54,395 nt of DNA, taken from a virus. Lineage: Duplodnaviria > Caudoviricetes. Position numbers and translations under genes: made by a program. Location of the stretch: IMG/VR virus record IMGVR_UViG_3300032006_000010, positions 1 through 54,395 of that record; one strand, 5' to 3'. Below the pieces are notes generated by a model. That model was not told the origin of the DNA. It was given only the letters and a program-made list of their open reading frames with translations, and searched no databases. Of this stretch, positions 1 to 54,395 are shown piece after piece (the stretch's first letter is position 1; each line of letters begins with the position of its first letter).

Positions 1-140
1 TAGTCTCAGTCCGGACCGTCGTCGTCTTGATATTTTCAAGGATTATGCATTACATCCTCATGTATCAGCAGACGGAGAACCATGCCTTGGTGGATTTTCA
101 CAACCTTGGAGTCAGTGTGTCAGTACAAATAATATTCCTT
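1..140. repeat. Terminal direct repeat, left copy (assembly circularisation overlap)
   Basis: 1-140 equals 54256-54395 except position 127 (a) vs 54382 (t), a synonymous ACA/ACT change. The repeat lies inside a continuous ORF, so it is an overlap and not a physical DTR. Confidence 0.95.
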
Positions 141-1249
141 CCCTAGTAAATGTAGCTCAAGCATTTCTTAATACTTGGACTCGTGGTGACCATTATTGGG
201 ATATAAATGGTTATTATAATAGCTGGAAGGCTGCTTATCCTGAAACTACTCATAGAAAAGAGTTTCCTTTTACTGAATGGTTAACACAAAGCTTCAAATG
301 GGACCATATGAAACGTAGAATAGGTATTGATGATAGAGCTAGATTATCATTCCGTGGTGCTTTCGAGTTTCCTAAGTTCTATTATAGTGAGGATTATAAG
401 GAAAAGAGACCAAAAGACCCGAATAAACATTGGAAGATGTTTGATTTATTCAATGGTGCTATGTTCTTTTATAGAACCAAGGAAGATACCGAGGATAAAT
501 TAAAAGAAACCCTTGTGAATCTATCAAAAATAGTAGGTGGCGCTCTTTGGAATATAAAAGAAAGCGTTGGAGCAGAAGTAGGAATTGAAACCAGACTTGT
601 AGATGGATTATTCGAAGATGTTCTTATGGAAAACGACTGGAGTAAATCTATTATAAAGGTTCCCGGTAGGGGTCCTAGGATAGAATATACTATAGCCTCC
701 GAGTTTAATGACCTTCATTATTGTTTAGACGGAGAAGCTAGAAAAAGAGCAGCTAATCTTGTAAACAATAACCCACTGACTTCTGATATGGTAAATGAAT
801 ATGCAAGAGCTATGAACCGTGCAGAACCTTGGGAATGTGGTGGATATTTAGAAAGGAATGATATTCTTGAATGTCTTTCCTATTATATGAGAAGGGGAAG
901 AACAAGAGCATACCCATATCTGCTTAGAGCCTTACGTAATATGATAAAGTTATTAGTAGGTTCGGATGTATGGAACAATGACCTCCTAATAGAAGGAGCT
1001 ACAGGTGTTAAATCTGCAGAAATTCTTTTAGAGGGTTTAATGATAATAAAGGATTTCACAGATGACGTAGATGAGTTCGATAGAGTCATTAGGAATCATT
1101 ATACTTATGAACTCTGCGATAGATATGAACAAATCCTTCGTAGACAAATCAAAGGAAGGATAACAGATGTCAAACGTAAGTACAGACCCATCATTCACAG
1201 TGCGACTACCGGAGCTGATAGTACAGAAAATCAATTATCTTTTGACTAG
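1..1249 (+). CDS. E2-like (ubiquitin-conjugating fold) protein, 3' portion; full gene is 53909-54255 joined to 1-1249, 531 aa
   Basis: Frame 2 is open from base 2 and in frame with the listed 308..1249 ORF. It encodes DYALHPHVSADGEPCLGGF (HPH at 53-61, Cys codon 83-85), matching the E2 signature HPN-x7-C-L. The long C-terminal region is not recognised. Confidence 0.8.
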   Translation, partial: SLSPDRRRLDIFKDYALHPHVSADGEPCLGGFSQPWSQCVSTNNIPSLVNVAQAFLNTWTRGDHYWDINGYYNSWKAAYPETTHRKEFPFTEWLTQSFKWDHMKRRIGIDDRARLSFRGAFEFPKFYYSEDYKEKRPKDPNKHWKMFDLFNGAMFFYRTKEDTEDKLKETLVNLSKIVGGALWNIKESVGAEVGIETRLVDGLFEDVLMENDWSKSIIKVPGRGPRIEYTIASEFNDLHYCLDGEARKRAANLVNNNPLTSDMVNEYARAMNRAEPWECGGYLERNDILECLSYYMRRGRTRAYPYLLRALRNMIKLLVGSDVWNNDLLIEGATGVKSAEILLEGLMIIKDFTDDVDEFDRVIRNHYTYELCDRYEQILRRQIKGRITDVKRKYRPIIHSATTGADSTENQLSFD

Positions 1250-1910
1250 ATTCAAGGATATTGAATGGTCAGGTCCAGCATGGTATAGTGTCAGGAAACA
1301 GGAGGATAATGGTTTTCCAATTGATGTCGAACTAGCTTATTTCAAACCAATCCATTTAGGTAATGGTGCTGAAACTGAGCTTGATGGCAATAAAATGGGG
1401 AAACTGTTACCACGGATTTATAAGAAAAGTCCGGACTTAAAGGACTGTTTTCTTGGCTTAATTCATAGTCATCATACTATGGGAGCATTTCTAAGCTCCA
1501 CAGATGAAAGCACAGCCTTAGAGCAAGCAGTATTTGATGGATTGTTCTTCTCAACAGTTGTAGCCTCTAGTAAGAGTCCATTTGCTACATGCGTCACCTA
1601 TAGAGACCAGTTTGGTTATTCTAATATTATAGAGGGTGAAGTAGAAACAGATGTACAATTACATGTTCCTAAAGAATGGAAACAGGAAGCTACACGTATT
1701 GAGAAGGCTAAGAAGAAGGAAGATAAGAAAGCATACAAATACACTCCAATGCGTACAGCTACAAATGAGCAGCTAACTATGGGGTATACTCGTCCAGAGT
1801 ACTATCATAATGGTTGGGGCTATCAACGTACAATCGAAGATGAACCAGAAACTAAAAAAAAAGTGACAGTGGGAACGAACCGGTTCAGCAAGTTGACAAA
1901 AAGCAGTTAG
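1167..1910 (+). CDS. JAB/MPN+ (JAMM) metallopeptidase, prokaryotic type
   Basis: N-terminal EWSG (catalytic Glu) and GLIHSHHTMGAFLSSTD = HxH-x7-S-x2-D; AAGGAAGGA upstream of the ATG. Confidence 0.9.
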   Translation: MSNVSTDPSFTVRLPELIVQKINYLLTRFKDIEWSGPAWYSVRKQEDNGFPIDVELAYFKPIHLGNGAETELDGNKMGKLLPRIYKKSPDLKDCFLGLIHSHHTMGAFLSSTDESTALEQAVFDGLFFSTVVASSKSPFATCVTYRDQFGYSNIIEGEVETDVQLHVPKEWKQEATRIEKAKKKEDKKAYKYTPMRTATNEQLTMGYTRPEYYHNGWGYQRTIEDEPETKKKVTVGTNRFSKLTKSS

Positions 1911-2292
1911 AGTGTATGGATGACCTTACTACTCAATTCTTAGATAGTGAGTTATCTTATCATGAATACCTTGAAAAAGTTAGGGACTTCTGCCCAGACA
2001 TAGACCCGTTTATGTACATGGATGACCCTAAAAATTGGACAGCTTAAAAGCTGACACATCATCTCAGAGACCCCATCCACAGCTACAATACAACTCTGAG
2101 ATACAGCTAAGGGTTCAGTTGTTTGTTTTAACAGTGAAAACTGGGGTTGGCAAACAGTGAATTAACACCACCTAGGACTAAGCCGTAATGGCTTCCCTAC
2201 GGAATGCTGAATCCTAAGATTTGAGGCATTTGGAGAGTGCAGACAGCCGCCAATGTAAGTCCTCAACTTTAACCGTTAACTAAGGAGGTAAA

Positions 2293-2550
2293 ATGACTAC
2301 TAAAACCTTACAGACTTTTAAGGAAATTCTAGACGATATGACAGAAGATGATTCAAATATAAAATATGAAATAACAAAAAATTCTTTAGACCTAAAAGTA
2401 AATGGCTGGACATATTCAATAGAAAAGAGCAGATGTTTAACAAGAGAAGATAGATGGGATTGGCTTGCTCACATGTCTGAAAAGAACTGGATTGATAACT
2501 ATACATTCATGGTAACATTTTTAAAGGCATGTAGAACTTGGGGTATATAA
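2293..2550 (+). CDS. Hypothetical protein (85 aa)
   Basis: Strong SD TAAGGAGGT; WLAHMSEKNW motif; TAATG overlap with the next ORF. Confidence 0.75.
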   Translation: MTTKTLQTFKEILDDMTEDDSNIKYEITKNSLDLKVNGWTYSIEKSRCLTREDRWDWLAHMSEKNWIDNYTFMVTFLKACRTWGI

Positions 2551-2705
2551 TGGAAAAATGGTCAAACGAACGTATCCATTATCAACCAAAAATAAGAAAA
2601 ATGGCTATTGAACATGCAATGGAGCGATACCGAGAATCGTTCTGGTATTATAGGCTCCTTAAGAAACTTCGTTTAATTAAGAGAGGAGACAACGATGAGA
2701 CATGA
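2550..2705 (+). CDS. Small basic hypothetical protein (51 aa, MEKWSNERIH...), not in ORF track
   Basis: Starts in a TAATG overlap, fills the gap and overlaps the ThiF start. Confidence 0.55.
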   Translation: MEKWSNERIHYQPKIRKMAIEHAMERYRESFWYYRLLKKLRLIKRGDNDET

Positions 2706-3480
2706 TTCTAGATTCTTAAGAAATAAAGACCTTATTGAACAAAGAAAACTTGACATGATAGGTATAGTAGGTCTTGGAGGCATAGGTTCGTTTCTTATAC
2801 AGTCGTTAGCAATAATGGGCTGGAGAGACTTATTCGGCTGGGATAATGATGTAATTGAAGCACATAATCTTAGTTCTACAGCATATCCTGTAAAATCAGT
2901 AGGCGATGATAAAAAAGACGCAGCCAAAGAGCTCTTTGCTAATTATAGTGAAGGGTGGCAAGGAATAGCAACAGCTGGAAATTTTACTGATGAGAATATA
3001 CCCTATCCAAAACAGATAGTATGTACCGATAATATGGAATCAAGAAAACTAGTGTATGAAAAATGGAAGAAACAATTAGAAAAGAGACATCCACGTGAGT
3101 TATTTAAGGATTCATTCTTTATAGACTTACGTATGGGTGCAACTAGTGTTGAGATGATAACCGTAACTCCAAATAATGATAATTATATGGACCATTGGTT
3201 ACCATCACACGACATTCCTCCCGCACCGTGTTCAATGAAACACACAGTATTTGCAGCTCAATATATTGCAGCACTTGGGATTTCTCAGGTGTATAATTTA
3301 GTTGCAGGTCTTGCATTTTATGACTACATTTGGACCAGCCTGAACCCAAATATGGTCAAATTTGGTACTTTAATAATTCCTAAAACAGAGGAGGTATTAA
3401 ATGATAGAAGTGAGGAAAGTAAGCACAGATTGGATGGCGATGCCATCCGGACTGACTTATCTCATTATCGGTCAGCCTAA
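2695..3480 (+). CDS. ThiF/MoeB/E1-family adenylyltransferase (E1-like activating enzyme)
   Basis: N-terminal RFLRN; GIVGLGGIGS nucleotide-binding loop; WDNDVIEAHNL; CTDNMESR; DLRMG; candidate catalytic Cys179 in PPAPC; SD GAGGAG. Confidence 0.92.
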   Translation: MRHDSRFLRNKDLIEQRKLDMIGIVGLGGIGSFLIQSLAIMGWRDLFGWDNDVIEAHNLSSTAYPVKSVGDDKKDAAKELFANYSEGWQGIATAGNFTDENIPYPKQIVCTDNMESRKLVYEKWKKQLEKRHPRELFKDSFFIDLRMGATSVEMITVTPNNDNYMDHWLPSHDIPPAPCSMKHTVFAAQYIAALGISQVYNLVAGLAFYDYIWTSLNPNMVKFGTLIIPKTEEVLNDRSEESKHRLDGDAIRTDLSHYRSA

Positions 3481-4261
3481 AACTGGTAAGACAACAGCAG
3501 CATCAAGATGGAGTACAAAAGGACAGGACGGTGTTATCGTTCTGGACACAGACTTAGGGTCTGACTTCGTTGATGGTGTTAATGCTGTTACAGTTACCTG
3601 TTTGAATACACCTGAACGTCCGTTATTGAAAGACGGAAAACAGGTTGTAGCTAACCGTAAAGCGCAATACGAAGTAATTCCACCGGAAGAACGGGGTTAT
3701 TCATATCGTTCAGGCGATATGAAGGGGACTCCTATGCCAGTTTACAGTCTAATAGAGTGTTATAACTGGCTAGCTTCCAAGTGGGATGAACTCCCATACG
3801 ATACTATAGTTATTGATACTATAAATGAGGTCAATCTTTGGATTGAAGCTTCAGTTATAAATGAACTAGGTATCACAGCTATGGGAGAAGGTCAGTGGGG
3901 AGCTGATTGGGGAAAAGCCAAGCGTAAGAACTTGGATATCATCAAGAAGTTCCAAGACCTCATAAAAAAGAAAGGCGGAAATCTGGTATTAATAAGCCAT
4001 GCTAAATCAACGGTAATGACCGATGGTAAAGCACAGTTGGCACCAGAGCTCCCACGTGGACTCGGATATGGTCTGGCTGCTAAAGCAGACGTAATCGGGT
4101 ATACTACGGCATCAAAAGAAGATGGTGAATATAATATCTCATTTGAAGCATATGATGAGAGAGTAGTTGGTAGCAGATTGCGACCTCTTGCTCAGAAAAT
4201 ATTACCTCTTAGTTATGATGCTATAACTAAAGAAATATTAAGTTATAAGGAGGAAGAATGA
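3401..4261 (+). CDS. AAA_24/Sak4-like P-loop NTPase (recombination/annealing protein)
   Basis: Walker A GQPKTGKT, Walker B IVIDT, LISH and DVIGY motifs; SD GGAGGT. Confidence 0.8.
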   Translation: MIEVRKVSTDWMAMPSGLTYLIIGQPKTGKTTAASRWSTKGQDGVIVLDTDLGSDFVDGVNAVTVTCLNTPERPLLKDGKQVVANRKAQYEVIPPEERGYSYRSGDMKGTPMPVYSLIECYNWLASKWDELPYDTIVIDTINEVNLWIEASVINELGITAMGEGQWGADWGKAKRKNLDIIKKFQDLIKKKGGNLVLISHAKSTVMTDGKAQLAPELPRGLGYGLAAKADVIGYTTASKEDGEYNISFEAYDERVVGSRLRPLAQKILPLSYDAITKEILSYKEEE

Positions 4262-4890
4262 GTACAGCTCGTTTTCGCCCAGCAGAACTTGAGAGTAAAC
4301 AGATAGGTTCTAAATTCTTAGGTTTCTGTAATGTTGGTATTATTGATTGGGAGGACAGAGCAGACCAGTATGACTGGGCTGATGTCTACCTAGTTGCAAC
4401 TGTAGTTCCAGAGGGTTCACAATACTCTCAGGAATTTAAGATTGCTGGGTCTTATGATAGAGACCATAAAAATAATATCACCACCTGTACATTATTAAAG
4501 AGACTTTATTGGCTCTTTGATGTATTAGGATTTGACGGTGGACCGGATATAAACGGTACTATGGTAGATGGAGAAGGTGAACCAATAGATTTGGTAACTT
4601 ATTTCTCTCAAAATCATGTCACAAATCCCTTAGAACCTAAACATGAGTACATATGTTACATTTATAAAGAAGCTGGTCGTAAAGACCCTTCTAAGGTGTA
4701 TTCTACTGTATTCCCGAAACTAGTACACAATACTCCATCCGGACTAAAGGACTTAGAAGGTTATATAGCTTTTATGAAGTCTAAGAATCTTATTAAGGAA
4801 GTATCTGAACTAGATATCGCAGCAAACGCAGACCCAACACCAGATAATGGTGTACCGGCACCTTCTTCTAAAGGTCCAGTAAGGTTCTAA
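4258..4890 (+). CDS. Putative single-stranded DNA-binding / replication accessory protein
   Basis: Lies between the AAA_24 gene and the primase-helicase; has a low-complexity Pro/Asp tail ending in Phe. Positional inference only. Confidence 0.45.
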   Translation: MSTARFRPAELESKQIGSKFLGFCNVGIIDWEDRADQYDWADVYLVATVVPEGSQYSQEFKIAGSYDRDHKNNITTCTLLKRLYWLFDVLGFDGGPDINGTMVDGEGEPIDLVTYFSQNHVTNPLEPKHEYICYIYKEAGRKDPSKVYSTVFPKLVHNTPSGLKDLEGYIAFMKSKNLIKEVSELDIAANADPTPDNGVPAPSSKGPVRF

Positions 4891-12233: not shown

Positions 12234-12403
12234 TATTTTCTAAACATCTTTACTACCGCAATCTTTAGTGCTGCACAAACAATAATGATTAAGAGTACTG
12301 TAGCAATATCAACAAAATGGTTACCCGAATCAGATTCAATGGTTCCATAAGGAGTTTCTATTGAAATCTTTTCTTGACGTTCTCTTACTGCTGTCTTCTG
12401 CAT
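12233..12403 (-). CDS. Small single-TM protein (56 aa), not in ORF track
   Basis: TAATG overlap with the 2908-aa gene; IATVLLIIIVCAAL hydrophobic helix. Confidence 0.5.
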   Translation of the reverse strand: MQKTAVRERQEKISIETPYGTIESDSGNHFVDIATVLLIIIVCAALKIAVVKMFRK

Positions 12404-15400
12404 TAGTACAAAAACCTTCCTCCTAAATGAGTAGCCGGGTCATCCTTTACCATCTTAGAGAACTGCATTACAGGAAGACCTGTAAACTTAGTTATTGCGT
12501 AATATGGATTCTCTATAGCACCGCCCGGTCCAACTACATCTCTTATTAATCTACCAAATGGAGGCATGGTCCATAGATAATAACCAGTAAGCTTATCAGA
12601 ATCACCAGTTACCAGCCACTTAAACATAGGTGGCAGCAATCGTAACGCAGGTGGTGTAACAGCTTGAAATGGTCCTATTATAGAGCCATAGAACGCTCGT
12701 TCTTTCTCTTTCTCATCGCCCATTAGGAAATCAGCAGTATCTTGGAACCAGTTATACGGAGCTGGTAAAGCATTCTCAAAGAGACTGTACATAAACAGGC
12801 TTGATAATGACATCATAAATAAGTCAGCCTGAGCCATTCTCTTGTAGCGTTCAAACTCCTTGGTCCCCGGTTCCCAACCGTATATATGCGCTTGCCTTAT
12901 TGTGTCGTTTCTAAAACGTACACTATTCCAACTCCATAGCTGGAACCTTGAAAACACCCTACCCAGAGTACTGTTAGCCCACATCGGTCTAAACGGTGAG
13001 CTGTATAAAAATTGTGTGCCCTTAACACCACGCTTAGCCATTTCAATAAGAAATGGATTATCAAAATCTTTTATAGCACCGCCAAACTGTTCACGTGCCT
13101 GTAAATAGTGAGCCATAAAGGCATCACGTCTCAACATCCGTTCTGGTATACGCATAAAAGAAGCAGCAAAGTTCCAAATACTGTCAGTAACACCATGCTT
13201 TTTTCTTAATGCATTCAAACTAGTGTCTGAAAAATCAGGGTCTTTCTTTATCTTAGCAGTGGCTTCACGTAAAAAACTTTCAAACTTCTTAGACTTTATC
13301 TTTGGGTTAAGACCAGCTTCATAAATTAGAAACTCTTCTATAACTCCTTGTTTCTGTATCCAGCGTTCGACATCCTTCATACTTTCCCACTTTGGGTTGA
13401 TGTTTGTTTTTAAATAATCAAAGTTCCTTCCTTTACGTAAATTACCATAACCAGCACTAATCCAAGTGTGAACTGTACCACCATAAAGATTTGCTATAGA
13501 ACTCTTAGGATGAGCAAGTAGGGAAGCTAACTGCCACTTTGCTTCTAAGGAACCCCATCCTTGCATTTGACTATACTCTACTCCACTTAATTCATCAATA
13601 GTTGTCTGGTCTAAGTCCCACTCCTCTAGCCTTTTACGACCAATACCTAAACGTTTCCTTATATAGTCAATCCTTTTCTTTGCCTGACTATCTGCTAACC
13701 ATTTATATGGAGTTCCTTTTATCTTCATACGGGGGTCATTCATTACCTTCTCTGGTATCTGAGTAGGGTAACCCATAGCAGACTGAGTATATAGCTTAAA
13801 GAAATTAGTCCAATCGTTAGTAAGCTTTGCGTCCTTAGTCTGTTTGTAGAAACGCTCGTTAAAATTATTCATAGTTATTCTACTTGCCAGCTGCATTGCT
13901 TGTTTATAAAATGTATCAACAGAGTTTTTCATATAAGATTCGTAAGCTTCTGGGTCCCTAGACCAACCACCTATATGAGCAGAACGACTGAACTGATTAC
14001 CAACCTTCTTTAGGTCAGACATTAGGATGTTCTTAGCCTTATTAGACCTTCCGGATGCATATTCTTTCATTACTTTCTGTACAACATCAAAATTATCTGT
14101 CATTTCATCCCTAGCCATGAAATCTCCAGTAAGCTGTTTATAATGATAGAATATTTTACGAGCCTCTGCCTGCTTCTCTTCTTTGGTGTAGTTAGGGTCT
14201 GAAAAAAGATTTTTTATTGCTCCTCTTAATCGTATATCCACCTTCTTCCTATCAAATGATACATGGGGATAATAAATATCAGATGGGAACTCCCCCGTCA
14301 CATCAAAAGGAGTAATCTCAAGCTTCTTAGATACCTTTGCCCATTCCTCTGCTGTCATTAGTTTCCTAGGCGTCATACTTAATAAAATCCTTTTAGTAAT
14401 CTGCCTAAGTCCATCTATACCGAACTTTTCAATTGGTATCTGCTCATTATTCTTAGCTTTCTTAGTGATATAGGCATAGAACTCTTTTCTTAGTTTCTGA
14501 AGCGACTGAAAGTTCTCCCTTCCGTCCTTTGTCCTTCCTTTGGCTAACCAACTCTCAACATAGTCTGGGTCACCACGCATCCACTTATAAGTTGCTTCAT
14601 TCTGCTTCGTAAGGATGTCGTTTATAGAGCGTATAATTTCATCCCCTGACATCAGCCTTGTTCCGCCTTCCATAGGGACACGATAAGTTTTACCCTTTAA
14701 TCTCTCATAAGAATCCTTCACCTCATTCCAATGGCTCTCATAAGACATCTCCTGCATTGTAAGCTTATGATTATTATCCTTATACTTTCTCCTAAGAACC
14801 CTTGGTATAATTCTTCTCTCTCTCATAGCAACGGCTATATCATATAAAACATCACCATCCTCAACGGCTCTTATAAATGGATTTAATTTTTCCCTAAACC
14901 TTTCTTTCTCTTCCTCGTTTTTCTGCATAGATAGTTCCTGATGTTTATAAGCCCATTGCTGTATCTCTCCAAGGGTACTAGTAGGTCTAACAGTCCTACC
15001 ACTTATAGTATTACCAAGTCTATCTTTGTATGGACCAACATCTTCTACCCACTGTACCATACCGGGATGCCTCATAAGGTCCCTATCTACAGCTTTAGGA
15101 AACATCCAGTAGTATGCTCTACGTATTTTAGGTCCCTTATCCTTACCAAGCATCCAATCAACTGTTTTCTTAAACCAAGTACCATCACGCATTTCATTAA
15201 AATATCTATCTAAAGTTTTTAGGTCATATTTTGTAGCTTGATTTATATTCTTACCAAAGAGACCACGAAACAGTCCGTTTAAATTTCGTGTATCAAGATT
15301 GTGATAGTGTTCAAGGTGTCCTTTAAGACTATGGTATATCTCCCTAAGCTCTGGGTCTTTAACTTTACCTCTATTAACGCCTACAAACGGAGCAATATCA

Positions 15401-18400
15401 TCAAGATACGTTCTATCTTTTTCTGAAAGGTCGGACGACTCTATTATCTCTCCCTTTATAAGATTACCCTCATCATCTTTGACGCTCTTAATTTTTTCTC
15501 TACCCTTATACTCGCCAATTATTAGTTCCTGTTCTTCCTTTGAGAGGTCAGTCTTTGTCTTACTTAAAAGAGCATCGTAATCACTAAAGAACTTTTTAAG
15601 ATTACTATCCTTAACAGCTTTAGAGTTCATAGCAGAGCGAACAAGAGAAGTGTTTTGCACCTGCTTCTCTAGCATATCGACAACTTTCCAATCAGCTGCT
15701 TTCTTACCTTTCTTCTTTTCAAGGCGCATCTTCATTTCTTGTACAGCCTTAGGATAACCACGTTGATATGTACCCATTAATAATATATCAAACAAATCCT
15801 TCTCTGCATTACTCTGATAACCCTTCTTAACTGTTCTAATAGCAGAGTCAATCTGTATCTGGTCAAGCTTAGCTGTACCAGTATCTTCTATACCAAAATT
15901 TTCACGCATCATTTCATTAACCTTAGAAGCCTCTTCATTCTGAGTAAAGGCAGAATCCTTTAAAGTATCGTCTCTATCACGCCTTCTCCTAGCCATGTGT
16001 ACACCCATATTCTTTATCTCATTAGCGTCTGCGTGTATCTTTGAGATGCGCTCTGGTACTATACCATGCTTACCTACAATATCTGTGATAGATTTGAGTG
16101 AAGCCATTGTGCTCATATCATTAACTAAGAAATCTTCTCCCTGCAAAACAAGTTTCTCTAGATAGCCTCTCCTGTAATCATAGCTACCATAATTAATAGG
16201 TCTCCACTTGCCATCAATATTACCCATAACAAGTCTCTCTTCACCAGTTGGCTTGTGAACATAGGTTTCATTCAATAGCCTTCTAAAGGCTTCCTCGTCA
16301 CGAGCAATTGTTTCTAATCCTTCCCTAGTATACAATCTATTAGAGTATATCCTATCAATAAACTTATTCCAAGGAGCCGCCAATGTAGTTCTGCCTAAGA
16401 TGTCATTCAGCCAGTCCTCTCTTTCGGTCATATTTTGGTGGGTATCATAAAGAGCCTTTACTCTTTTATAATCTGTGTGTCTAAATAAATTATCAGACCA
16501 GTTTACATCTCTCAAACTTTCAGACAATAGAGGCATAAGGGTATTACGTGAACCTTCTGGTAGAAACTTCATAGCTTCTAGACCAGCAGATATGTCAGCA
16601 TAAGACCATCTCCTAGCTTCAGTATAATTCTTACCATATAATAAACTGTTAGTCCTAAAGAACATCCTGTGTAAACCCTTACCCTTTAACCAATCAAGCT
16701 TACCATCTTGAAGTTTCTTAGTAAGAGAAGGATTAGGCTTCGATACCTTACCTTTAATACTTCTTATCTCATAATTGAATAGTGTATCAAGAACCTTAGA
16801 AGAAAATACATCTATCCCTTTCAAGCCAGCTTCATCCATTGGGTCAGAACCAAGTGCAACAGTAGCACGAGCCATTTCTCTAAAGCGCTGTAAATCTTCT
16901 TCCCCTGTCTTAGCCTTAAAAACTATACGGTAACGCCTATTCCCCATAATAAATGGTATACTATATTGCCCCCTACCAAGCCATACAGTACCAGTAGCTA
17001 CTTCTCCGTTCTTATTCCTTACCTCGCTGCCCTTTACCTCTAGAATTATATCTTTCATGGCTACGTTTTCACCCGTATGTCCACGTATTGCGTTATATGC
17101 GCCGATTACAGCAGCCCTATTAGTAACAGCAAAACCAAGCATATCACGACCACTTGCAGCCCCCTCACTCATAAAGCCCCTCCAATAAGGACTGTACTGT
17201 GAGCCCGGATGTAGTCCTTCTTGCTGTATCTCCTTACTTCTAACAGCAAGCTGTTCACCATAGGTCTGTCCTGTCTTTGGGTCTATAGCTTCTTTGTTAT
17301 GTTTCTCTGCATTAGTCTTAGAGTCAACATATTCATCTTTCTGTGAATGGTACATCTCTCTCCATGACTGTTTAAAACCGCTTTTGTCTCCACCAAAAAA
17401 GATAAAGGCTTTATCCCCATCTAAATCAGCCCCTCCCAGAGCTTTCATGGTTCTTGGATGCAAGAGTACCCCGTACCCCTTAACCCCCGTAAAACCGGCA
17501 AATTTGAGCGAATGAGCACCACTTATGGAGTCCATAGGAACTCTCATGGCTGCAGCATGCAGTATTTGAGCTACTTTATCCTTATTTGCCTTGTATTTAC
17601 CAGCATTAAAGTCTTCCCAAACGTTTTCCAAGGTTTCTCTACCTTTTATAATAAGAGGGTCCTTTATACGAAGCTTCTTAAATCCTTCGTCCAGATAGAA
17701 TATATCATCAGTATCACGCAACCTAGAGATATCTGAGTCCTTCATTCTCATACCTATATCCCAAGGGCGCATACGTGCTGTAGCTGAATTATACATTCTA
17801 GGTCTAGTAAGTTGTGTAACCACATAGTTACGCATTGCTGCCATGCGGTAATCACGTGAAAACTTATGAAGATAAGCTCCAATAGAGCCTTCAGGGAATA
17901 CACGATTTAATCTTTGAACAATGCTTTCAAACTCAGCATTTACTTCACGCTCCTGTTGAATCTCAGACCTTGACAGTTCACCCTCTTCAGCCAATGCTTC
18001 AACATACTCATTATTAAGCTTGAGTATTTTCTCATAAGCCTTAGATGCAAACTTCTCATGCTTTGGGTCTCTCATCATTTCAAGAAGCTTAGGAATACTA
18101 ATATCCTCTAGATTGTTAATTGCCCTATTAAGATTAGCGTTGCTAGGGTCATCCTTATAGGCTTTAAGCATTTCATTAGCCTCAGGTATACCCTTAAAAG
18201 CCCTGTTAGAAAGAGTTTCATACATATCTTGGATAACCTCAGGCTTTACATCTTTATAACCATAAGAACTAAGTGTAGTAAACATCTGTTTAGGTAATCT
18301 CTGGGGTTTTATATACTTATCACTGGTAATTTCAGACATAATAGTCCTAAAACTACTGATAGGAAGCTCGTACCCTTCACCATTAAACCCTATCTTCCCC

Positions 18401-21129
18401 TTATTATCAATAAAAAGGTCCCCAGATTGTCTTGTACCCATCTGTTTAGCTGCCGATTCGGGTATAAGCATGTGTAAATCGTTCTCTTTCATATACTTAG
18501 CGAGCTCAGCTGAAGGAGCATGCATCATATACTTACCAAGTACAGCTCCATATTCTGCGTTAGGCGCTACAATAAAGGACTTGTTTACATTACCACTAGT
18601 TGGCAATCCTTTATCAACATTATGAGCATCAATAATCTCTTCCCTAGCTATAATAGCACCATCAGTCATCTCTGTATATTCATCAGCCTTAGACTTTAGA
18701 GTTATTTTCTTCTGGTCATAATACCCATCTGCGTCCTTGAAAAACCCTACCCGGTAATTCCTTCCACCAATAACGTTAACACCCCTATCTTTTAAATAGG
18801 TGAAAACGAAATTAGGATTAGCTGATAGACCTGTATTAAACCAAATCTGCGCTCTTTTATTATAAGCCTTAGCATTATTAATCATACCCTTAGCAAGAAC
18901 CTTGCCCATATTAAGTTCTATCTCTTTTGGCTTAGTCCCAGAACTAAAACCATTAAAGGTCATGTCGTACAAAACATTAGACACATACATTTGTCTGTAT
19001 CTATCTGCTGCATTCTTTAGGTTGGGGTATCTTTCTTTAAATTTCTCTAGTCCAGCACGATAATTTTTCTTTACTCCCTTTATACCGTTCTTTCTCATGG
19101 CTCTCTGTATACTATTTAGAACCTTCTTGCTTTCCTTAGGCTTGGCTGCCACCCTAGGATGTTTTCTTACAAAATACATCTTCTTATTATCACCCTTACC
19201 ACCCATATAATAGTAACCCTGTTTCCACATAGAGTCCATTAATCTGTTGTAAGCCTTGTCAATTTTTATACGAGCTTCAGAGCGAGCAATATTTTTTAAT
19301 TCTGTAGGCGTAAAGTCCTGATATTTATCTGACTTAGATTTCTTTATCCTTATTAATTCGTCCCTAGCTAAGCCTTCATGCACACGTGTTAAATCATACT
19401 CCTTATTACCCCATATCATATGGTCAAGTACTCTAAAGAAGCCCTCTTCTGGTCTAGGAGGCTCCTTAAATACAGAAACATGCTCAGCGTCATATCTATC
19501 TTCTACTACAAGTCGCTCCTGTGAGAGGTCTTTCTTATTACCCACAGCATTAGTCTTACCCTTAAGTATGCCAACTTTACCGTCAACCAATGAAATCTGG
19601 TCGACCCATTCCTTTTTCCTAGTGCTTTCCGCCCAGCGTCTCCACCAACCTGATTGCTCTTCATTTAATGTCACCCCATACTTCTTTTCAATGAACTTGG
19701 TTATCTTTTCTTCAGCACCTAAGGTTGGTTTACCATCTTTATGATGCTTTGTCCACTCAGAATATATTTCATCAGCAACTTTAATCTTTTTTATATCAGG
19801 ATTTTTAGAGGTCTCCCAAGCTTCTTTTAGATTCTGTTCAACATATCCACCTCTACCAGCTACTCTACCCGGTATATCACCAAGTTTGGCAATGTGCATA
19901 TCTAAATCATGTGGGTCTTCAAACCTTGGGTCATCTTTATAAGCATCTCTATAGGATTTTAAGTCTTCCTTATTTAAACCAAACGATACTTCTCCAGTAT
20001 TCGTGTCAATGTCAGTCTTTCCTTGGTACTCCTTAGCTAGTTTGTCTATGTCCTTTATATCAATACCCTTACCACGCATTAGGTCATAGACAACATACTG
20101 TGATTCTTCTGGACCAAAGAAGTGTTTGAAATCATTCTTAACAATACCCTGCATCTCTGGAGTTAAAGTATCCCACTTAGGATTAAGCTCAGGGTCTGGT
20201 CCATGATTACCCTTGAAGGATTCGTTTAAAAACTGTCTACTAGCTCTAGTTTGATAGGGTGTTTCCTTGAAACCGAAAAAAGCACCAAGAGCATAAGCAT
20301 ATACTTGTTCTTCTGTAGTAGCATTTTGTGCTGTTGCTGGTAATCCAGTAAAAGCAGCACCAGCCATAGTTCTAGCTGTAAGGTCAGCTATCTGCCCGGG
20401 CTCCAACTTCTTTAGATTAGGACTACCATTTGGCTTTAACTGGTCTGCTGATAATCTTTTTCCAAAACCGGGAAGATTACCTATACCTCTAAAAGCACCA
20501 CCTGCTACTGCTCCAAAACCAGCACTATGAAATACCTCATCAACTCCATGAGTCCAACTTGATACCCCACTAGCTACACCAAGATGGAAAGCTCCAGAAG
20601 CCATATCTCTTAATACTCCACCCTCTGTAATAAAATTTGGTAGGTCTTTTAAGAAAGGTTGAGCAACCTTACTCACTTTCCTAGAAGCCATATCAGCGGC
20701 TTTCATAGGAACACTCTTCCCTTTTATACCTCTCAGAGTTCCAGCTAGTTTAACTGCACCAAGTGCTTTAAGTATACGAGCACCCGGCATGTAACCAACG
20801 AAGCCAGCAAGATGCCCAAGGTTTCTTGCAATTCCCTCGGCTGTGTCTCTAGGCTCACTACCGACTCCTAATTTTTCAGGCGGAAGTGTGGTAAATCCTT
20901 CCCACCACCCAGAGCCAAATTGTTTTATTGTCTTAAAAAGGAAACTGTCTTGGTGTTCCTTTGTCCTTGCAAAGGGAATAGCATAATGAGCTGCATGGTC
21001 TTCGAGGGTCTGTATATCATCATCCTTACCGTCAAACTGATAAGGTCTAAGACGATACTCAGTTATGAGATTGTCTATATCTTCCCGACTGTGCTTAGGT
21101 TGCCAGTCGGTACTCAACGGACCTGCCAA
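12403..21129 (-). CDS. Giant internal virion protein with a two-barrel (DPBB) RNA polymerase catalytic motif; putative virion RNAP
   Basis: MRVPMD...LHPRTMKALGGADLDGDKAF (DxDGD at 17413-17427); Gly/Ala-rich N-terminus; located at the end of the ejection protein cluster. Confidence 0.75.
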   Translation of the reverse strand: MAGPLSTDWQPKHSREDIDNLITEYRLRPYQFDGKDDDIQTLEDHAAHYAIPFARTKEHQDSFLFKTIKQFGSGWWEGFTTLPPEKLGVGSEPRDTAEGIARNLGHLAGFVGYMPGARILKALGAVKLAGTLRGIKGKSVPMKAADMASRKVSKVAQPFLKDLPNFITEGGVLRDMASGAFHLGVASGVSSWTHGVDEVFHSAGFGAVAGGAFRGIGNLPGFGKRLSADQLKPNGSPNLKKLEPGQIADLTARTMAGAAFTGLPATAQNATTEEQVYAYALGAFFGFKETPYQTRASRQFLNESFKGNHGPDPELNPKWDTLTPEMQGIVKNDFKHFFGPEESQYVVYDLMRGKGIDIKDIDKLAKEYQGKTDIDTNTGEVSFGLNKEDLKSYRDAYKDDPRFEDPHDLDMHIAKLGDIPGRVAGRGGYVEQNLKEAWETSKNPDIKKIKVADEIYSEWTKHHKDGKPTLGAEEKITKFIEKKYGVTLNEEQSGWWRRWAESTRKKEWVDQISLVDGKVGILKGKTNAVGNKKDLSQERLVVEDRYDAEHVSVFKEPPRPEEGFFRVLDHMIWGNKEYDLTRVHEGLARDELIRIKKSKSDKYQDFTPTELKNIARSEARIKIDKAYNRLMDSMWKQGYYYMGGKGDNKKMYFVRKHPRVAAKPKESKKVLNSIQRAMRKNGIKGVKKNYRAGLEKFKERYPNLKNAADRYRQMYVSNVLYDMTFNGFSSGTKPKEIELNMGKVLAKGMINNAKAYNKRAQIWFNTGLSANPNFVFTYLKDRGVNVIGGRNYRVGFFKDADGYYDQKKITLKSKADEYTEMTDGAIIAREEIIDAHNVDKGLPTSGNVNKSFIVAPNAEYGAVLGKYMMHAPSAELAKYMKENDLHMLIPESAAKQMGTRQSGDLFIDNKGKIGFNGEGYELPISSFRTIMSEITSDKYIKPQRLPKQMFTTLSSYGYKDVKPEVIQDMYETLSNRAFKGIPEANEMLKAYKDDPSNANLNRAINNLEDISIPKLLEMMRDPKHEKFASKAYEKILKLNNEYVEALAEEGELSRSEIQQEREVNAEFESIVQRLNRVFPEGSIGAYLHKFSRDYRMAAMRNYVVTQLTRPRMYNSATARMRPWDIGMRMKDSDISRLRDTDDIFYLDEGFKKLRIKDPLIIKGRETLENVWEDFNAGKYKANKDKVAQILHAAAMRVPMDSISGAHSLKFAGFTGVKGYGVLLHPRTMKALGGADLDGDKAFIFFGGDKSGFKQSWREMYHSQKDEYVDSKTNAEKHNKEAIDPKTGQTYGEQLAVRSKEIQQEGLHPGSQYSPYWRGFMSEGAASGRDMLGFAVTNRAAVIGAYNAIRGHTGENVAMKDIILEVKGSEVRNKNGEVATGTVWLGRGQYSIPFIMGNRRYRIVFKAKTGEEDLQRFREMARATVALGSDPMDEAGLKGIDVFSSKVLDTLFNYEIRSIKGKVSKPNPSLTKKLQDGKLDWLKGKGLHRMFFRTNSLLYGKNYTEARRWSYADISAGLEAMKFLPEGSRNTLMPLLSESLRDVNWSDNLFRHTDYKRVKALYDTHQNMTEREDWLNDILGRTTLAAPWNKFIDRIYSNRLYTREGLETIARDEEAFRRLLNETYVHKPTGEERLVMGNIDGKWRPINYGSYDYRRGYLEKLVLQGEDFLVNDMSTMASLKSITDIVGKHGIVPERISKIHADANEIKNMGVHMARRRRDRDDTLKDSAFTQNEEASKVNEMMRENFGIEDTGTAKLDQIQIDSAIRTVKKGYQSNAEKDLFDILLMGTYQRGYPKAVQEMKMRLEKKKGKKAADWKVVDMLEKQVQNTSLVRSAMNSKAVKDSNLKKFFSDYDALLSKTKTDLSKEEQELIIGEYKGREKIKSVKDDEGNLIKGEIIESSDLSEKDRTYLDDIAPFVGVNRGKVKDPELREIYHSLKGHLEHYHNLDTRNLNGLFRGLFGKNINQATKYDLKTLDRYFNEMRDGTWFKKTVDWMLGKDKGPKIRRAYYWMFPKAVDRDLMRHPGMVQWVEDVGPYKDRLGNTISGRTVRPTSTLGEIQQWAYKHQELSMQKNEEEKERFREKLNPFIRAVEDGDVLYDIAVAMRERRIIPRVLRRKYKDNNHKLTMQEMSYESHWNEVKDSYERLKGKTYRVPMEGGTRLMSGDEIIRSINDILTKQNEATYKWMRGDPDYVESWLAKGRTKDGRENFQSLQKLRKEFYAYITKKAKNNEQIPIEKFGIDGLRQITKRILLSMTPRKLMTAEEWAKVSKKLEITPFDVTGEFPSDIYYPHVSFDRKKVDIRLRGAIKNLFSDPNYTKEEKQAEARKIFYHYKQLTGDFMARDEMTDNFDVVQKVMKEYASGRSNKAKNILMSDLKKVGNQFSRSAHIGGWSRDPEAYESYMKNSVDTFYKQAMQLASRITMNNFNERFYKQTKDAKLTNDWTNFFKLYTQSAMGYPTQIPEKVMNDPRMKIKGTPYKWLADSQAKKRIDYIRKRLGIGRKRLEEWDLDQTTIDELSGVEYSQMQGWGSLEAKWQLASLLAHPKSSIANLYGGTVHTWISAGYGNLRKGRNFDYLKTNINPKWESMKDVERWIQKQGVIEEFLIYEAGLNPKIKSKKFESFLREATAKIKKDPDFSDTSLNALRKKHGVTDSIWNFAASFMRIPERMLRRDAFMAHYLQAREQFGGAIKDFDNPFLIEMAKRGVKGTQFLYSSPFRPMWANSTLGRVFSRFQLWSWNSVRFRNDTIRQAHIYGWEPGTKEFERYKRMAQADLFMMSLSSLFMYSLFENALPAPYNWFQDTADFLMGDEKEKERAFYGSIIGPFQAVTPPALRLLPPMFKWLVTGDSDKLTGYYLWTMPPFGRLIRDVVGPGGAIENPYYAITKFTGLPVMQFSKMVKDDPATHLGGRFLY

Positions 21130-25409: not shown

Positions 25410-25711
25410 TTTTTTTCCCTTAATGTGAACCCACTAGCAGAAGAGCCATCGCTCCTAATCCAACCATCATTAGTCTTTATCTCTAAAAAGTAAACCTTTT
25501 TATCCTTCACAACCCTAAATGCCCCAGATTCAGAAGTATCCTCAGGTTCCTCTACCTGTCCAGTAGGTATGTCTACTTTCTTAGCAATCTTAGAAATAGT
25601 ATACTCTAAATCAGAGTATCCACGACTATTATCGCTATTATCTCCATAATGATTAACACGTTGCCCCGTGCTTCTTACTACTGGATTAATTATTTTTCTC
25701 TTAATAGCCAT
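25406..25711 (-). CDS. Hypothetical virion-associated protein
   Basis: Translationally coupled to the 1219-aa tail gene. Confidence 0.6.
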   Translation of the reverse strand: MAIKRKIINPVVRSTGQRVNHYGDNSDNSRGYSDLEYTISKIAKKVDIPTGQVEEPEDTSESGAFRVVKDKKVYFLEIKTNDGWIRSDGSSASGFTLREKK

Positions 25712-49934: not shown

Positions 49935-50691
49935 TAGATACTGGCTCCTTGACACTTCTGGTGGCAATTAGCTTATTCTCTTCCTCATTTATATTATCTA
50001 TCAGCTTTTTCGTCTGTACAGCCTCTATCCTATCCGTTGTAGTCACTGTTTCCTTGTCTTTCATGCCATGAATCTCAAAACCATCGTTAACAAAGCCACG
50101 AATAGCGTTAACATCCTTCTTTTCCTTAGCCATATCAACGCCATCCTTCATAAGATTAATAAAATAATCTACATCAAGCATATTGTCATCTAATAATTTC
50201 TGTGCTTCGTCTCTTTTCATAGACCTAAAGTTCTCCGTTCTCATGTGTCGCCTTAATTTGCGACGTTTTCCTGCACTAACACTACCAAAAACCTTATCTA
50301 TAGCGATATCACGGTCATCTGAGATAGCTGCCCATAGTGCTAAATCCTTATAATCCTTACTATTACAGCGTACATCAAGCCATTTCTTACCAGAAAAGGT
50401 ATTATTAGCTACCCTTCCACCAGCACAGAACTTCTTATTTGGATATCTAGCATCCCACATAATATAACCAAAAGGCATGCGGTAGTAATAAGAAGGTCTA
50501 CCACTAGTATCAAGATACTCCTTCTTTTTTATTACCTTCGCTACCCAGCCGTCGTCTGTGACCGCCCAGTCTCCTGCGTCGCACTTTTGCCAGCCTTTGA
50601 ATGGTATTCCTTCTTTTTCTGCTTCTTCCTGTAGATATATCGGGTATTCCGTGACCCCCTTATCCCTATGGTTAATGGTTACTGTGTACAT
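49909..50691 (-). CDS. Putative terminase small subunit / DNA-binding protein
   Basis: Immediately upstream of and overlapping terL; positional inference. Confidence 0.5.
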   Translation of the reverse strand: MYTVTINHRDKGVTEYPIYLQEEAEKEGIPFKGWQKCDAGDWAVTDDGWVAKVIKKKEYLDTSGRPSYYYRMPFGYIMWDARYPNKKFCAGGRVANNTFSGKKWLDVRCNSKDYKDLALWAAISDDRDIAIDKVFGSVSAGKRRKLRRHMRTENFRSMKRDEAQKLLDDNMLDVDYFINLMKDGVDMAKEKKDVNAIRGFVNDGFEIHGMKDKETVTTTDRIEAVQTKKLIDNINEEENKLIATRSVKEPVSNGKEEETD

Positions 50692-51557: not shown

Positions 51558-51691
51558 GACACGGTAGTGCATTGCGTGCTATTGGCACGTACGCATTGCA
51601 TGCTCAAACCTGTGCTTCCCCCTACACACAGTAGGGGGGACACACACAGGTCTTATTTTATCACACCCGTGAAAGGAATCAGCAATAGCTG

Positions 51692-51787
51692 ATGTATTCA
51701 ATATTTCGTAATTTCAGTAAGCTATGGTACTGCATAGTGAGTCCGGATGGTAACCCAATCGACGTAGACAACCAGACCAAAGGTTAA
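51692..51787 (+). CDS. Possible 31-aa peptide (MYSIFRNFSKLW...)
   Basis: GAAAGGA SD separated from the ATG by the hairpin ATCAGC-AATA-GCTGAT. Confidence 0.3.
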   Translation: MYSIFRNFSKLWYCIVSPDGNPIDVDNQTKG

Positions 51788-51809
51788 CACAGTTGATTAA
51801 ATCCCAAAC

Positions 51810-53619: not shown

Positions 53620-53823
53620 ATGGCTAAAGTACTAGTACAGACCTTTGGTGGCGTTGTCAAGACAATGGAAGCTGAAAATCCTGCTGCATTAGCAGAGCAA
53701 TTAGGCTTGGCATTGGACAATTCCACAATTAACGTCAATGCTAAAGCGGCTGAAGCAACGACTACGTTGCGAGATGACGATTTCGTTGCATTTGTGACGG
53801 ATAAAGTCCAGTCGGGTAAGTAG
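53620..53823 (+). CDS. Ubiquitin-like beta-grasp protein (ThiS/MoaD/Ubl), C-terminus -VQSGK
   Basis: 67 aa; INVN...TTLRDDDFVAFV matches the ThiS/MoaD pattern xVN...L.DGD.V; penultimate Gly; SD TAAGGAG; directly upstream of the E2-like gene. Confidence 0.8.
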   Translation: MAKVLVQTFGGVVKTMEAENPAALAEQLGLALDNSTINVNAKAAEATTTLRDDDFVAFVTDKVQSGK

Positions 53824-53908: not shown

Positions 53909-54395
53909 ATGTCTGAAGATAATCTATATAAAACAACCTTTGTTAAAAAGTGGCTAAAATCAAATATAAATTATCATAATCAAGTTCACATGTCGAATGA
54001 AGAATTGACTAATACAGCCCAACATTTTGTGGAAAAACTAGATATTCATGATTGTAGTATAAATCCCGGCTCATCTCATATGAATTTTAGAGTTCGTGTA
54101 GGTAGACCAAAGTTCAGGGGCAGTGGAAACTATATACTACCTAAACATTCTCTAGTTTTTAATACCTATGAACCTTCAAAGGTTAGAATCGTTATGGACG
54201 GTTCAATGGAGCCAGAATGGTGGGGAGACCATGAAGCATACATAATGGAAAGAAATAGTCTCAGTCCGGACCGTCGTCGTCTTGATATTTTCAAGGATTA
54301 TGCATTACATCCTCATGTATCAGCAGACGGAGAACCATGCCTTGGTGGATTTTCACAACCTTGGAGTCAGTGTGTCAGTACTAATAATATTCCTT
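53909..54395 (+). CDS. E2-like protein, 5' portion (continues across the junction), not in ORF track
   Basis: AAGGAG then ATG 53909 (MSEDNLYKTT...); open to the window end and includes HPHVSADGEPCL. Confidence 0.8.
   Translation, partial: MSEDNLYKTTFVKKWLKSNINYHNQVHMSNEELTNTAQHFVEKLDIHDCSINPGSSHMNFRVRVGRPKFRGSGNYILPKHSLVFNTYEPSKVRIVMDGSMEPEWWGDHEAYIMERNSLSPDRRRLDIFKDYALHPHVSADGEPCLGGFSQPWSQCVSTNNIP
54256..54395. repeat. Terminal direct repeat, right copy
   Basis: 139/140 identical to 1-140. Confidence 0.95.

Follow-up and report, generated by a model that had tools for sequence, protein, structure and literature searches.

Does a tailed phage encode a ubiquitin-like conjugation pathway of its own? 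This question is raised by the IMG/VR virus record IMGVR_UViG_3300032006_000010 (Caudoviricetes), of which we analysed positions 1 to 54,395; this whole stretch of DNA is called the window below. A preliminary description of the window had proposed that, once the two ends are joined, four co-directional genes within ~4.1 kb encode a small ubiquitin-like protein (Ubl), an E2-like conjugating enzyme, a JAB/JAMM metalloprotease and a ThiF-type E1 activating enzyme. The four open reading frames (ORFs) are all present where they were placed, running from 53620 through the junction to 3480, which is a span of 4,116 bp, and the motifs quoted for them (HPHVSADGEPC, the JAMM motif, GxGxxG, DNMESR and Cys179) can all be read at the expected positions. 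The gene inventory was correct for these four ORFs and missed a detached C-terminal piece of the JAB gene and two small ORFs between the JAB and E1 genes (Table 1). We conclude, with a probability of roughly 0.7, that the four genes form a self-contained ubiquitin-like conjugation pathway of the phage. This reading is built on the folds and motifs of the proteins, the conservation of both, and synteny, from which we infer the chemical steps, an E3-like role for one domain and the targets.

The first 140 bases of the window are the same as its last 140 bases, with 1 mismatch at position 127. The contig is therefore a closed circle or a terminally redundant genome, with 54,255 unique bp. The E2-like gene crosses this junction. 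The joined protein is present in the protein collection as P0001, with 531 amino acids, and it is 100% identical to the 415 amino acids encoded at 2-1249. In the copy of the repeat at the end of the window, the codon for Cys144 of this protein lies at 54338-54340.

Table 1. Positions of the cassette genes, their parts and the adjoining features in the window
Feature	Position	Strand	Basis or remark
Ubl, 67 aa, ends ...KVQSG-K	53620..53823	+	beta-grasp model and Foldseek
E2-like protein, residues 1-162 (N-terminal helices, beta-sheet, HPH-x7-Cys144 loop)	53909..54394	+	ORF open at window end; part of P0001
E2-like protein, residues 117-531 and stop codon	2..1249	+	Cys144 codon at 83-85
UBC-like domain of E2-like protein	to ~residue 230 (nt 343)
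Helical C-terminal domain of E2-like protein	residues 231-517 (nt 344-1204)		fast-evolving
Disordered tail of E2-like protein	residues 518-531 (nt 1205-1246)		overlaps JAB gene
JAB/JAMM metalloprotease, 247 aa as read	1167..1910	+	JAMM motif, Prok-JAB
A9 homopolymer, JAB frame break	1854..1862	+	-1 shift joins 1167-1910 to 1916-2047
43-aa ORF, detached JAB C-terminal piece (...YHEYLEKVRDFCPDIDPFMYMD...)	1916..2047	+	fused in 12/13 relatives aligned
Two small accessory ORFs, 85 aa (2293-2550) and 55 aa (2538-2705)	2293..2705	+	variable JAB-E1 spacer, outside conserved core
E1, 261 aa, single adenylation domain	2695..3480	+	Pfam ThiF; Cys179 codon 3229-3231
Sak4-like ATPase, first gene of replication/recombination module	3401..4261	+	phrog_124 E=4.6e-26, AAA_24 E=3e-20

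Three alignment-driven scans of IMG/VR recovered 98 loci, 3 of which were repeats, leaving 95 distinct contigs, several of them near-identical to one another. The synteny expected for the four genes was found, as the order Ubl-E2-JAB-E1, followed by a Sak4-like gene and a primase-helicase gene, recurs across these 95 contigs. When hidden Markov models (HMMs) built from our own alignments were run on all ORFs of the 98 loci, the four genes were detected in order and on one strand at 64 loci. The partial loci consist of 25 with the E2-like, JAB and E1 genes, 7 with the Ubl and E2-like genes, 1 with the Ubl, E2-like and JAB genes, and 1 with the E2-like gene only (L077), and wherever a downstream gene is missing, the contig or locus stops at that point. 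No Ubl was detected by HMM at 26 loci; 15 of these start within the E2-like gene or no more than ~210 nt from it, and the other 11 carry a second small-protein family, described below. A small ORF with a Ser-Gly end stands directly upstream of the E2-like gene in every informative locus (83/83). The preliminary description had also noted that the E1 gene runs into the replication module, and this link is conserved: the E1 and Sak4-like genes of the window overlap by 80 nt, all 77 loci with at least 1,500 nt of downstream sequence have a Sak4-like gene after E1, and 76 of these 77 also have a primase-helicase gene there. Since these two genes lie downstream in nearly all loci with that much sequence, we regard the cassette as a constant element of the replication module in a single broad lineage of marine phages. 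Across 23 related loci, the E2-like protein is the least conserved (25-30% identity), compared with 53-68% for JAB and 54-61% for E1. The Ubl is the slowest-evolving protein of the cassette: it is present in 19 first-set loci, and in 18 of them its identity is 79-85%. Even where the E2-like protein falls to ~15% identity, the catalytic residues do not vary.

The junction protein had been proposed to be UBC-like, and E2/UBC structures are the best matches of its N-terminal domain. The AlphaFold2 model of the protein (pLDDT, the predicted local distance difference test score, 86.7; predicted template modelling score 0.77) starts with two helices, followed by a beta-sheet over residues 46-96, a helix over 105-115 and a long loop that holds HPH...Cys144; further helices run to ~225, an all-helical region covers ~238-509, and the end is a disordered tail. 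In the translation, HPHVSADGEPC occupies residues 134-144. The full 531-amino-acid model was compared by VIA-align with each of 48,161 chains, and the figures given here are from the 50 rows listed. E2 enzymes are at the top for residues 21-217, the first being UBE2E1 (3bzh_A, Z 5.7, root mean square deviation 4.6 Å, 118 residues aligned), followed by UBE2W (8a58_A, Z 5.6) and UbcH10 (5a31_Q, Z 5.6). Of those 50 rows, 31 cover the N-terminal domain, and 26 of the 31 are either E2s or E2 fusions (18) or RWD, UEV or FANCL domains (8), which are UBC-like folds. A profile made from 13 N-terminal domains and searched against all PDB sequences gave 3 hits at E<=10, all of which are E2s: UBE2W at E=0.013 and 0.014, and a UBC core protein at E=1.7. 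In this alignment, which reaches only E2 active sites, HPH-x7-Cys144-Leu lies on the HPH-x7-Cys-Leu of UBE2W, and Trp152-Ser lies on the E2 Trp-Ser-Pro. We take the aligned HP[HN]-x7-Cys segment of UBE2W and UBC to be the one that holds the catalytic cysteine. The N-terminal domain alone was needed for this result, since the profile of the full-length protein found UBE2W at chance level only (E=1.5).

Conservation of Cys144, the second claim made for this protein, holds over a much wider set of relatives. A profile search of 1.84 billion representatives yielded 86 E2-like clusters at E<=0.001, most of them 440-670 amino acids long, and the distant clusters share only the region around residues 130-200. 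In an alignment of 42 members, down to 15% identity, eight residues never change (H134, P135, H136, P143, C144, G146, T176 and D179), and of all Cys, His and Lys positions, only H134, H136 and C144 are conserved in >80% of the members. In the viral contigs, C144 is present in 94/95 and HPH in 93/95, with gaps accounting for the remainder. As a lead only, 28 of the 30 named neighbours of residues 1-230 in the ESM Atlas are viral clusters in which 14-19% of members carry Prok-E2_D. Based on the structural matches, the profile alignment and this conservation, we consider it very probable that residues ~40-225 are a diverged UBC domain with Cys144 as its catalytic residue. Median identity to the window protein among 41 members is 34% in the N-terminal domain and 14% in the C-terminal domain. 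The C-terminal domain thus evolves much faster, and it is therefore proposed as a specificity element. It has no recognisable relative by VIA-align or in the ESM Atlas, where residues 231-531 gave no usable hit; UBA-like rows for residues 290-500 (Z ~5, 44-56 residues aligned) are too weak to claim. Ten distant members (461-655 amino acids) were considered as Cap2-like fusions of E2 and E1 and were rejected, as they have no PADLOC or Pfam match.

The 67-amino-acid protein had been described as a beta-grasp protein, and its AlphaFold2 model, made from a 29-sequence alignment (pLDDT 89.3), has the order strand-strand-helix-strand-strand-strand and a loose C-terminal tail. Foldseek against the PDB gives 16 matches at E<=0.001 for this model, all of which are ubiquitin, SUMO, TtuB or Caldiarchaeum ubiquitin, with template modelling scores, normalised to the query, of 0.56-0.66. 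The family profile searched against PDB sequences found no Ubl at E<=10. The C-terminus of the family is conserved up to ...KV[T/Q/H]-S-G and then continues in a variable tail that is unrelated between lineages, being none, K, S, C, Q, R, LA, LV, SK or a longer unrelated string. The HMM-detected Ubl homologues in viral contigs all have the arrangement of SG plus tail at the C-terminus (70/70), and the length of the tail is 0 residues in 4 of them, 1 in 45, 2 in 14 and 3 to 25 in 7; in 64 of the 70 it does not exceed 3 residues. By analogy, such a C-terminus points to a precursor from which a protease frees the reactive glycine; in Bil systems, as described in the accessible part of PMC10557695, the tail of the BilA precursor is processed by BilC, a JAB-type deubiquitinase (DUB). 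For the window Ubl, Gly66 is the predicted reactive C-terminus and Lys67 the predicted removable tail.

The second small-protein family mentioned above occupies the Ubl slot, directly upstream of the E2-like gene, in 11 loci (L072, L073, L075 and L077-L084). Its members have 77-101 amino acids and end in ...[N/S]-[K/H]-K-S-G plus 0-3 residues. This family resembles the first Ubl family weakly and over the last strand only.

The JAB protein carries the complete metal motif that identifies it as a JAMM protease, read from the translation as E33 and H100-S-H102-x7-S110-x2-D113, and all of E33, H100, H102, S110 and D113 are invariant in 87/87 viral contigs. A search of PDB sequences with the single JAB sequence found nothing relevant, and the best PDB hits of the family profile are archaeal Rpn11-like proteins (E=0.096), aligned on HxH...S..D. 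We predict that this protease trims the tail of the Ubl and reverses its conjugates. As read in the window, the JAB frame is broken at a run of nine A residues. A -1 shift at this run restores the ~290-amino-acid form that is found in 12 of 13 relatives; the only other split JAB gene is that of L023, which has an A10 run at the same place, and 10 of 11 fused relatives checked have in-frame runs of A6-A9. Contigs of three DNA runs from three studies, which may include the source sample, have no inserted or deleted letters at the A9 run, and an isolated assembly error is therefore unlikely. Possible explanations for the split are transcriptional slippage, translational (programmed) slippage or a real frameshift.

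Between the detached JAB piece and the next gene, 245 nt (2048-2292) contain no ORF and have no Rfam match. The two accessory ORFs that follow have no Pfam match and only weak PHROG matches of unknown function. The length of the spacer between JAB and E1 varies among relatives, and the spacer is absent in distant lineages, where the two genes abut or overlap.

The E1 protein passes the Pfam threshold for ThiF, as had been proposed (PF00899, E=4.2e-12, 46.2 bits against a cut-off of 28.1). Its motifs, read from the translation, are GLGGIGS at residues 26-32, DNMESR at 112-117, and Cys179. It also matches 23 PADLOC models of the CBASS "E1-E2" type on their E1 part, with a best E value of 8.4e-8. 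In the viral contigs, G26, G28, G29, D50, D52, N58, D112, R117 and R146 are invariant (86/86), and C179 is present in 85/86. Cys179 is also kept in gp76 of crAss001; it is a candidate for the catalytic Cys of the crossover loop that an E1-type thioester would need. A co-fold of E1 with the Ubl, run without controls, scored 0.15 against a mark of 0.32, which speaks neither for nor against binding.

Taken together, these proteins suggest the following pathway. The Ubl would be made as a precursor ending in ...Ser-Gly66-Lys67, and the JAMM protease would remove everything after Gly66. The ThiF-type E1, probably a homodimer like ThiF and MoeB, would use ATP to adenylate Gly66 and may then carry it as a thioester on Cys179. 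The Ubl would next pass to Cys144 of the E2-like protein. The ~300-residue helical C-terminal domain may be a built-in substrate selector that does the job of an E3, so that the Ubl would be transferred to an amine on a target protein, and the JAMM protease could also reverse the mark. As a first guess, the targets are most likely host or phage proteins that are important in genome replication or host takeover, since the cassette lies beside the Sak4-like and primase-helicase genes of a genome with no recognised polymerase: among the 30 window proteins scanned with Pfam, a scope that leaves out small ORFs and several structural-module ORFs, neither a DNA polymerase nor a sliding clamp was recognised. 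Tentatively, the phage may use tagging as its own weapon, the E2-like protein acting as an E2-E3 fusion in which the hypervariable helical domain selects host proteins, such as replisome, repair or defence factors, for marking by the highly conserved Ubl at replication takeover; we hold this to be a reasonable possibility that falls short of an even chance.

Several results weigh against a conjugation pathway. The E2 fold match is modest, with a Z of 5.7 compared with Z 8, which is the tool's mark above common arrangements, and Foldseek with the full-length E2-like model gave no match in the PDB at E<=0.001 and no E2, its rows being mostly helical proteins. None of the 42 members matches a Pfam E2 family at E<=1 (UQ_con, Prok-E2_A to E), and PF14460 was not found in three related records (crAss001 and two related viral records). 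The JAB protein is below the Pfam Prok-JAB cut-off (20.2 bits against 25, E=5.7e-4), and the Ubl is under that of Pfam ThiS (16.6 bits against 22.5, E=0.012). Among PDB sequences, E1 is closest to PaaA (E=9.7e-4), which is not a ubiquitin E1, and the NEDD8 E1 is also hit; the phage E1 has no ubiquitin-fold domain or other recognisable element for docking an E2. The sulfur carrier TtuB is among the structural matches of the Ubl, and JAB-E1 pairs occur in the genomes of crAss001 and Fpv1 without an E2-like or Ubl homologue that the family profiles detect at E<=1. For the E2-like protein, an independent line of evidence, the sequence profile of the N-terminal domain, closes much of the gap left by the modest VIA-align score.

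The E2-like protein is also hard to find by simpler searches. At E<=0.01, Pfam, PHROGs, NCBIfam and PADLOC give nothing for it, and the only matches above this value are a chance-level one in NCBIfam (E=0.09) and a PADLOC E1-E2 model (E=0.043). A single-protein scan of viral contigs with the 415-amino-acid piece found no relative, and relatives came to light only through the alignment-based scans. Among prokaryotes, with 185,579 species represented by one genome each, two pattern scans also found no E2-like relative, with a sensitivity limited to the patterns used.

The last residues of the E2-like protein raise a separate question. The E2-like and JAB genes overlap by 83 nt (1167-1249), which places E2-like residues 518-531 over JAB residues 1-27. 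The tail reads ...DSxENQLSFD here and QSELF, QGQLF or QVHLSFE in other lineages. A Q-x-x-L-x-F-type motif is present in the last 14 residues of 51 of the 67 members of at least 440 amino acids, whereas 2 of 194 other ORFs have it and shuffled tails give 1.7 of 67 on average, the patterns having been written after the tails were inspected. The motif resembles the beta-clamp consensus, given as QLxLF in the accessible part of PMC4549789. In all 27 lineages examined, the codons of the tail are the +1 frame of a conserved JAB N-terminal helix, K-[IVY]-x-[YF]-[LF]-L, which is conserved in crAss001 without any overlap, and gp57 of Fpv1, a protein that is not E2-like, ends in the same ...DSEQNQVPL. 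Because of this shared frame and the occurrence of the same tail on an unrelated Fpv1 protein, the motif is most likely a by-product of overlapping genes, and a real docking motif for the clamp is distinctly unlikely.

How does the cassette compare with known systems? The characterised prokaryotic systems that combine E1, E2, JAB and Ubl (type II CBASS, Bil and Bub) are bacterial and have anti-phage or stress roles, according to the accessible part of PMC11601603. The closest arrangement is that of Bil (BilABCD) and of the class 6d operons of Iyer et al. 2006 (PMC1779556), which like the phage cassette have a separate Ubl, E2, JAB-type DUB and E1 (PMC10557695; PMC1779556; both as far as accessible). 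Bil is also similar in that further residues come after the C-terminal Gly of its Ubl and have to be taken off by the DUB, and in its cysteine-relay cascade (PMC10557695, accessible part). In contrast, Bil is bacterial and defends against phages, while the phage cassette sits in a phage replication module. As described in the same portion of PMC10557695, BilD is a large E1 with an inactive and an active adenylation domain and a CYS domain, whereas the phage E1 has 261 amino acids and one domain, and BilB has a CEHH-type site, in which the His follows the Cys, whereas the phage E2-like protein has HPH before the Cys. Class 6d E2s are described in the accessible text of PMC1779556 as lacking the classical histidine, while the phage protein keeps a eukaryote-like HPH-x7-Cys and adds a 300-amino-acid helical domain. 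PADLOC at E<=1e-3 gave no match other than CBASS E1-E2. The cassette therefore fails the defining features of Bil in E1 architecture, E2 conserved residues and genomic setting.

Type II CBASS offers a partial likeness. Cap2 shares a ThiF-type single adenylation domain and is the best defence-model match of the phage E1, the phage E2-like region weakly matches the E2 part of Cap2 in one PADLOC model (the E=0.043 match given above), and Cap3 is a JAB that serves as an antagonist or processing enzyme. However, Cap2 is a fusion of E2 and E1 which conjugates the CD-NTase's C-terminus rather than a free Ubl (PMC11601603, in the part accessible), while in the phage the E2 and E1 genes are separate, 1.4 kb apart, and a dedicated Ubl is present. 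No nucleotidyltransferase was found among the 30 scanned proteins. The eukaryotic E2s, and UBE2W in particular, supply the best structural matches and the sole PDB profile matches, and they share HP[HN]-x7-Cys-Leu...Trp-Ser, with UBE2W itself having HPH. Compared with them, the phage protein is ~14-16% identical across the aligned region and does not match Pfam UQ_con, and it adds two N-terminal helices, a long insert before the HPH loop and the 300-amino-acid C-terminal domain. The phage E2 site thus appears closer to those of eukaryotic E2s, UBE2W in particular, than to those of bacterial E2s as described in the accessible portions of the sources cited.

Cultured phages have part of the cassette. 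In crAss001 (gp77-gp76) and in Fpv1 (gp56/gp54-gp53), representing the Flavobacterium psychrophilum phages, JAB and E1 genes are adjacent, in the same order and in replication modules, and the records label the pair "metalloprotease" and "thiamine biosynthesis protein ThiF". Against the family profile, the JAB homology has an E value of 1e-88 for crAss001 and 4e-14 for Fpv1, the profile including the crAss001 sequence; by tblastn with the window JAB alone it is 1.2e-08. The E1 proteins of crAss-like and Fpv1 phages are 27-32% identical to the phage E1, and that of crAss001 has an extra N-terminal stretch of ~150 amino acids. A JAB-E1 pair can exist either without the E2-like protein and Ubl or with partners that are too diverged to detect. 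The proteins encoded upstream of JAB in these phages, crAss001 gp78 and Fpv1 gp57, were considered as hidden E2-like proteins and rejected, as the profile comparison was negative and neither has an H-P-[HN]...C motif. The JAB similarity of Fpv1 falls into two parts, one on each side of an oppositely oriented "endonuclease" gene, gp55 (loci L025, L027 and L028; crAss001 is L001).

Alternatively, the main job of the cassette could be to interfere with Ubl-based host immunity of the Bil, type II CBASS or Bub type. The JAB protein would remove host-made conjugates, whether these are on phage proteins or on cGAS-like enzymes, and the other three proteins (Ubl, E1 and E2-like) would compete with the host machinery or mis-load it instead of tagging targets for the phage. 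This is consistent with the roles of known bacterial E1/E2/JAB systems, among which Bil tags a phage tail protein (PMC11601603, accessible part), and with the resemblance of the phage E1, among defence models, to the E1 domain of CBASS Cap2. The very fast evolution of the E2-like C-terminal domain would also be expected in an arms race. We nevertheless regard this explanation as unlikely. Many anti-defence genes are variable accessory genes, but in 95 distinct contigs this cassette has a fixed, core place within the replication module. For simple erasure the JAB protein would be enough, and the invariance of catalytic residues across the three enzymes speaks for use of the whole cascade.

It is less probable still, and indeed very unlikely, that the Ubl is a sulfur carrier. 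On this explanation, E1 would adenylate the Ubl, which would be thiocarboxylated like ThiS, MoaD or TtuB and donate sulfur for modification of a nucleotide, tRNA or DNA; the JAB protein would only mature the carrier, and the 531-amino-acid protein would be a sulfur relay or a protein other than an E2. The pairing of an E1 of this family and size, whose best family names are ThiF and MoeB, with a small beta-grasp partner that has a C-terminal Gly does recall ThiS/MoaD and ThiF/MoeB, and the match of the Ubl to TtuB and the occurrence of JAB-E1 pairs without a detectable E2 in crAss001 and Fpv1 point in the same direction, as does the presence of JAB, ThiS/MoaD-like and E1 genes in sulfur-assimilation operons (PMC1779556, in its accessible part). 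Set against this, the 531-amino-acid protein is always between the Ubl and JAB and has an unvarying E2-type HPH-x7-Cys, which the ThiS/MoaD-ThiF/MoeB pairs lack. ThiS and MoaD end in Gly-Gly, unlike the phage Ubl, which ends in Ser-Gly with a removable tail. All NCBIfam ThiF/MoeB matches of E1 are far below the cut-offs. The absence of sulfur-transfer partners, on which the preliminary description had drawn, is borne out among the 30 proteins: Pfam found no rhodanese, cysteine desulfurase, TtuA/ThiI-type protein, ThiG, MoaE or cysteine synthase.

It is highly improbable that E1 activates some other substrate, a peptide or small-molecule carboxylate as with PaaA and MccB, with its neighbours only loosely linked, since this is favoured by the PaaA hit and by a co-fold that leaves E1:Ubl binding without a verdict, but opposed by the strict order and co-conservation of four genes over 95 distinct contigs, by the conserved C-terminal Gly of the Ubl with its variable removable tail and by the lack of biosynthetic partner genes among the 30 scanned proteins. 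A small chance is left for something outside all of these explanations.

The remainder of the genome is that of a tailed phage with 39.4% G+C. PHROGs identifies a portal protein (E=1.6e-80), a large terminase (5.8e-94), a major head protein (2.8e-23) and, on the minus strand, a tail fibre, and Pfam identifies a GH108 endolysin. The cassette belongs to a short plus-strand block that runs from ~52.9 kb through the junction to ~9.6 kb and also contains the Sak4-like ATPase, primase-helicase, Gp157 and HNH endonuclease genes (Pfam and PHROGs). DNA near-identical to the window is present in many marine plankton and seawater metagenome runs, of which 16 rows hold at least half of the sampled words; the source sample may be among these runs. 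In one metatranscriptome run, two short contigs cover 3245-3499 and nothing else of the window, and one of the two continues into unlike sequence; these contigs do not establish transcription of the cassette. A promoter scan was not better than shuffles (11 found compared with a mean of 7.7, and 23 compared with 16.6), and neither was a terminator scan; these scans lend no support to the early expression proposed in the preliminary description. Rfam found no family over the whole window.

Several other features of the genome were observed. Between the Sak4-like and primase-helicase genes, a 210-amino-acid ORF (4258-4890) with 58-66% identity in relatives has no family match; our guess from its position is that it might bind single-stranded DNA as a partner of Sak4. 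The small ORFs at 53003-53260 and 53400-53591, just upstream of the Ubl gene, are conserved in most related loci, and neither has a Pfam match. The 85-amino-acid protein has two CxxC pairs and is zinc-ribbon-like by eye, and the 63-amino-acid protein is basic, ends in KRGRPKK and is AT-hook-like by eye. Where the minus-strand structural block gives way to the plus-strand block, ~2.2 kb (50692-52862) have no ORF of at least 120 amino acids and no Rfam match and might be a regulatory region or an origin. On the plus strand, ARAGORN calls a tRNA-Leu(taa) at 49781-49858, inside the large-terminase ORF (48420-49967, minus strand); Rfam finds no tRNA there at the gathering score, and the call is probably false. 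Two very large minus-strand ORFs, 12403-21129 (2,908 amino acids) and 25711-29370 (1,219 amino acids), have no PHROG match at E<=1e-5 and no Pfam match at E<=1e-3.

Our literature search found no E1/E2/JAB/Ubl cassette in a lytic phage and no mention of the ThiF-JAB pair of crAss phages; subscription journals and supplements were not covered, and a prior mention is possible. The cassette is probably a virus-encoded form of the prokaryotic Ubl-conjugation systems, and it is complete and is a fixed core module of a whole marine phage lineage, represented by 95 contigs and 86 E2-like representative clusters. If it does conjugate, then viruses of bacteria deploy ubiquitin-like tagging themselves, and if the tagging is used by the phage as a weapon, Ubl conjugation would be used on both sides of the conflict between phages and bacteria. 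The viral lineage appears to keep a eukaryote-like HPH-x7-Cys that bacterial BilB and class 6d E2s do not show in the accessible descriptions of them, which, if the reading is true, would bring a viral branch into the debate on the origin of the eukaryotic E2 active site. A minimal E1 of 261 amino acids and an E2 with a built-in specificity domain would then be available for mechanistic study. Genes now called "thiamine biosynthesis protein" and "metalloprotease" in cultured crAss-like and Flavobacterium phages would be re-labelled, and these phages would provide tractable systems for the JAB-E1 half of the pathway.

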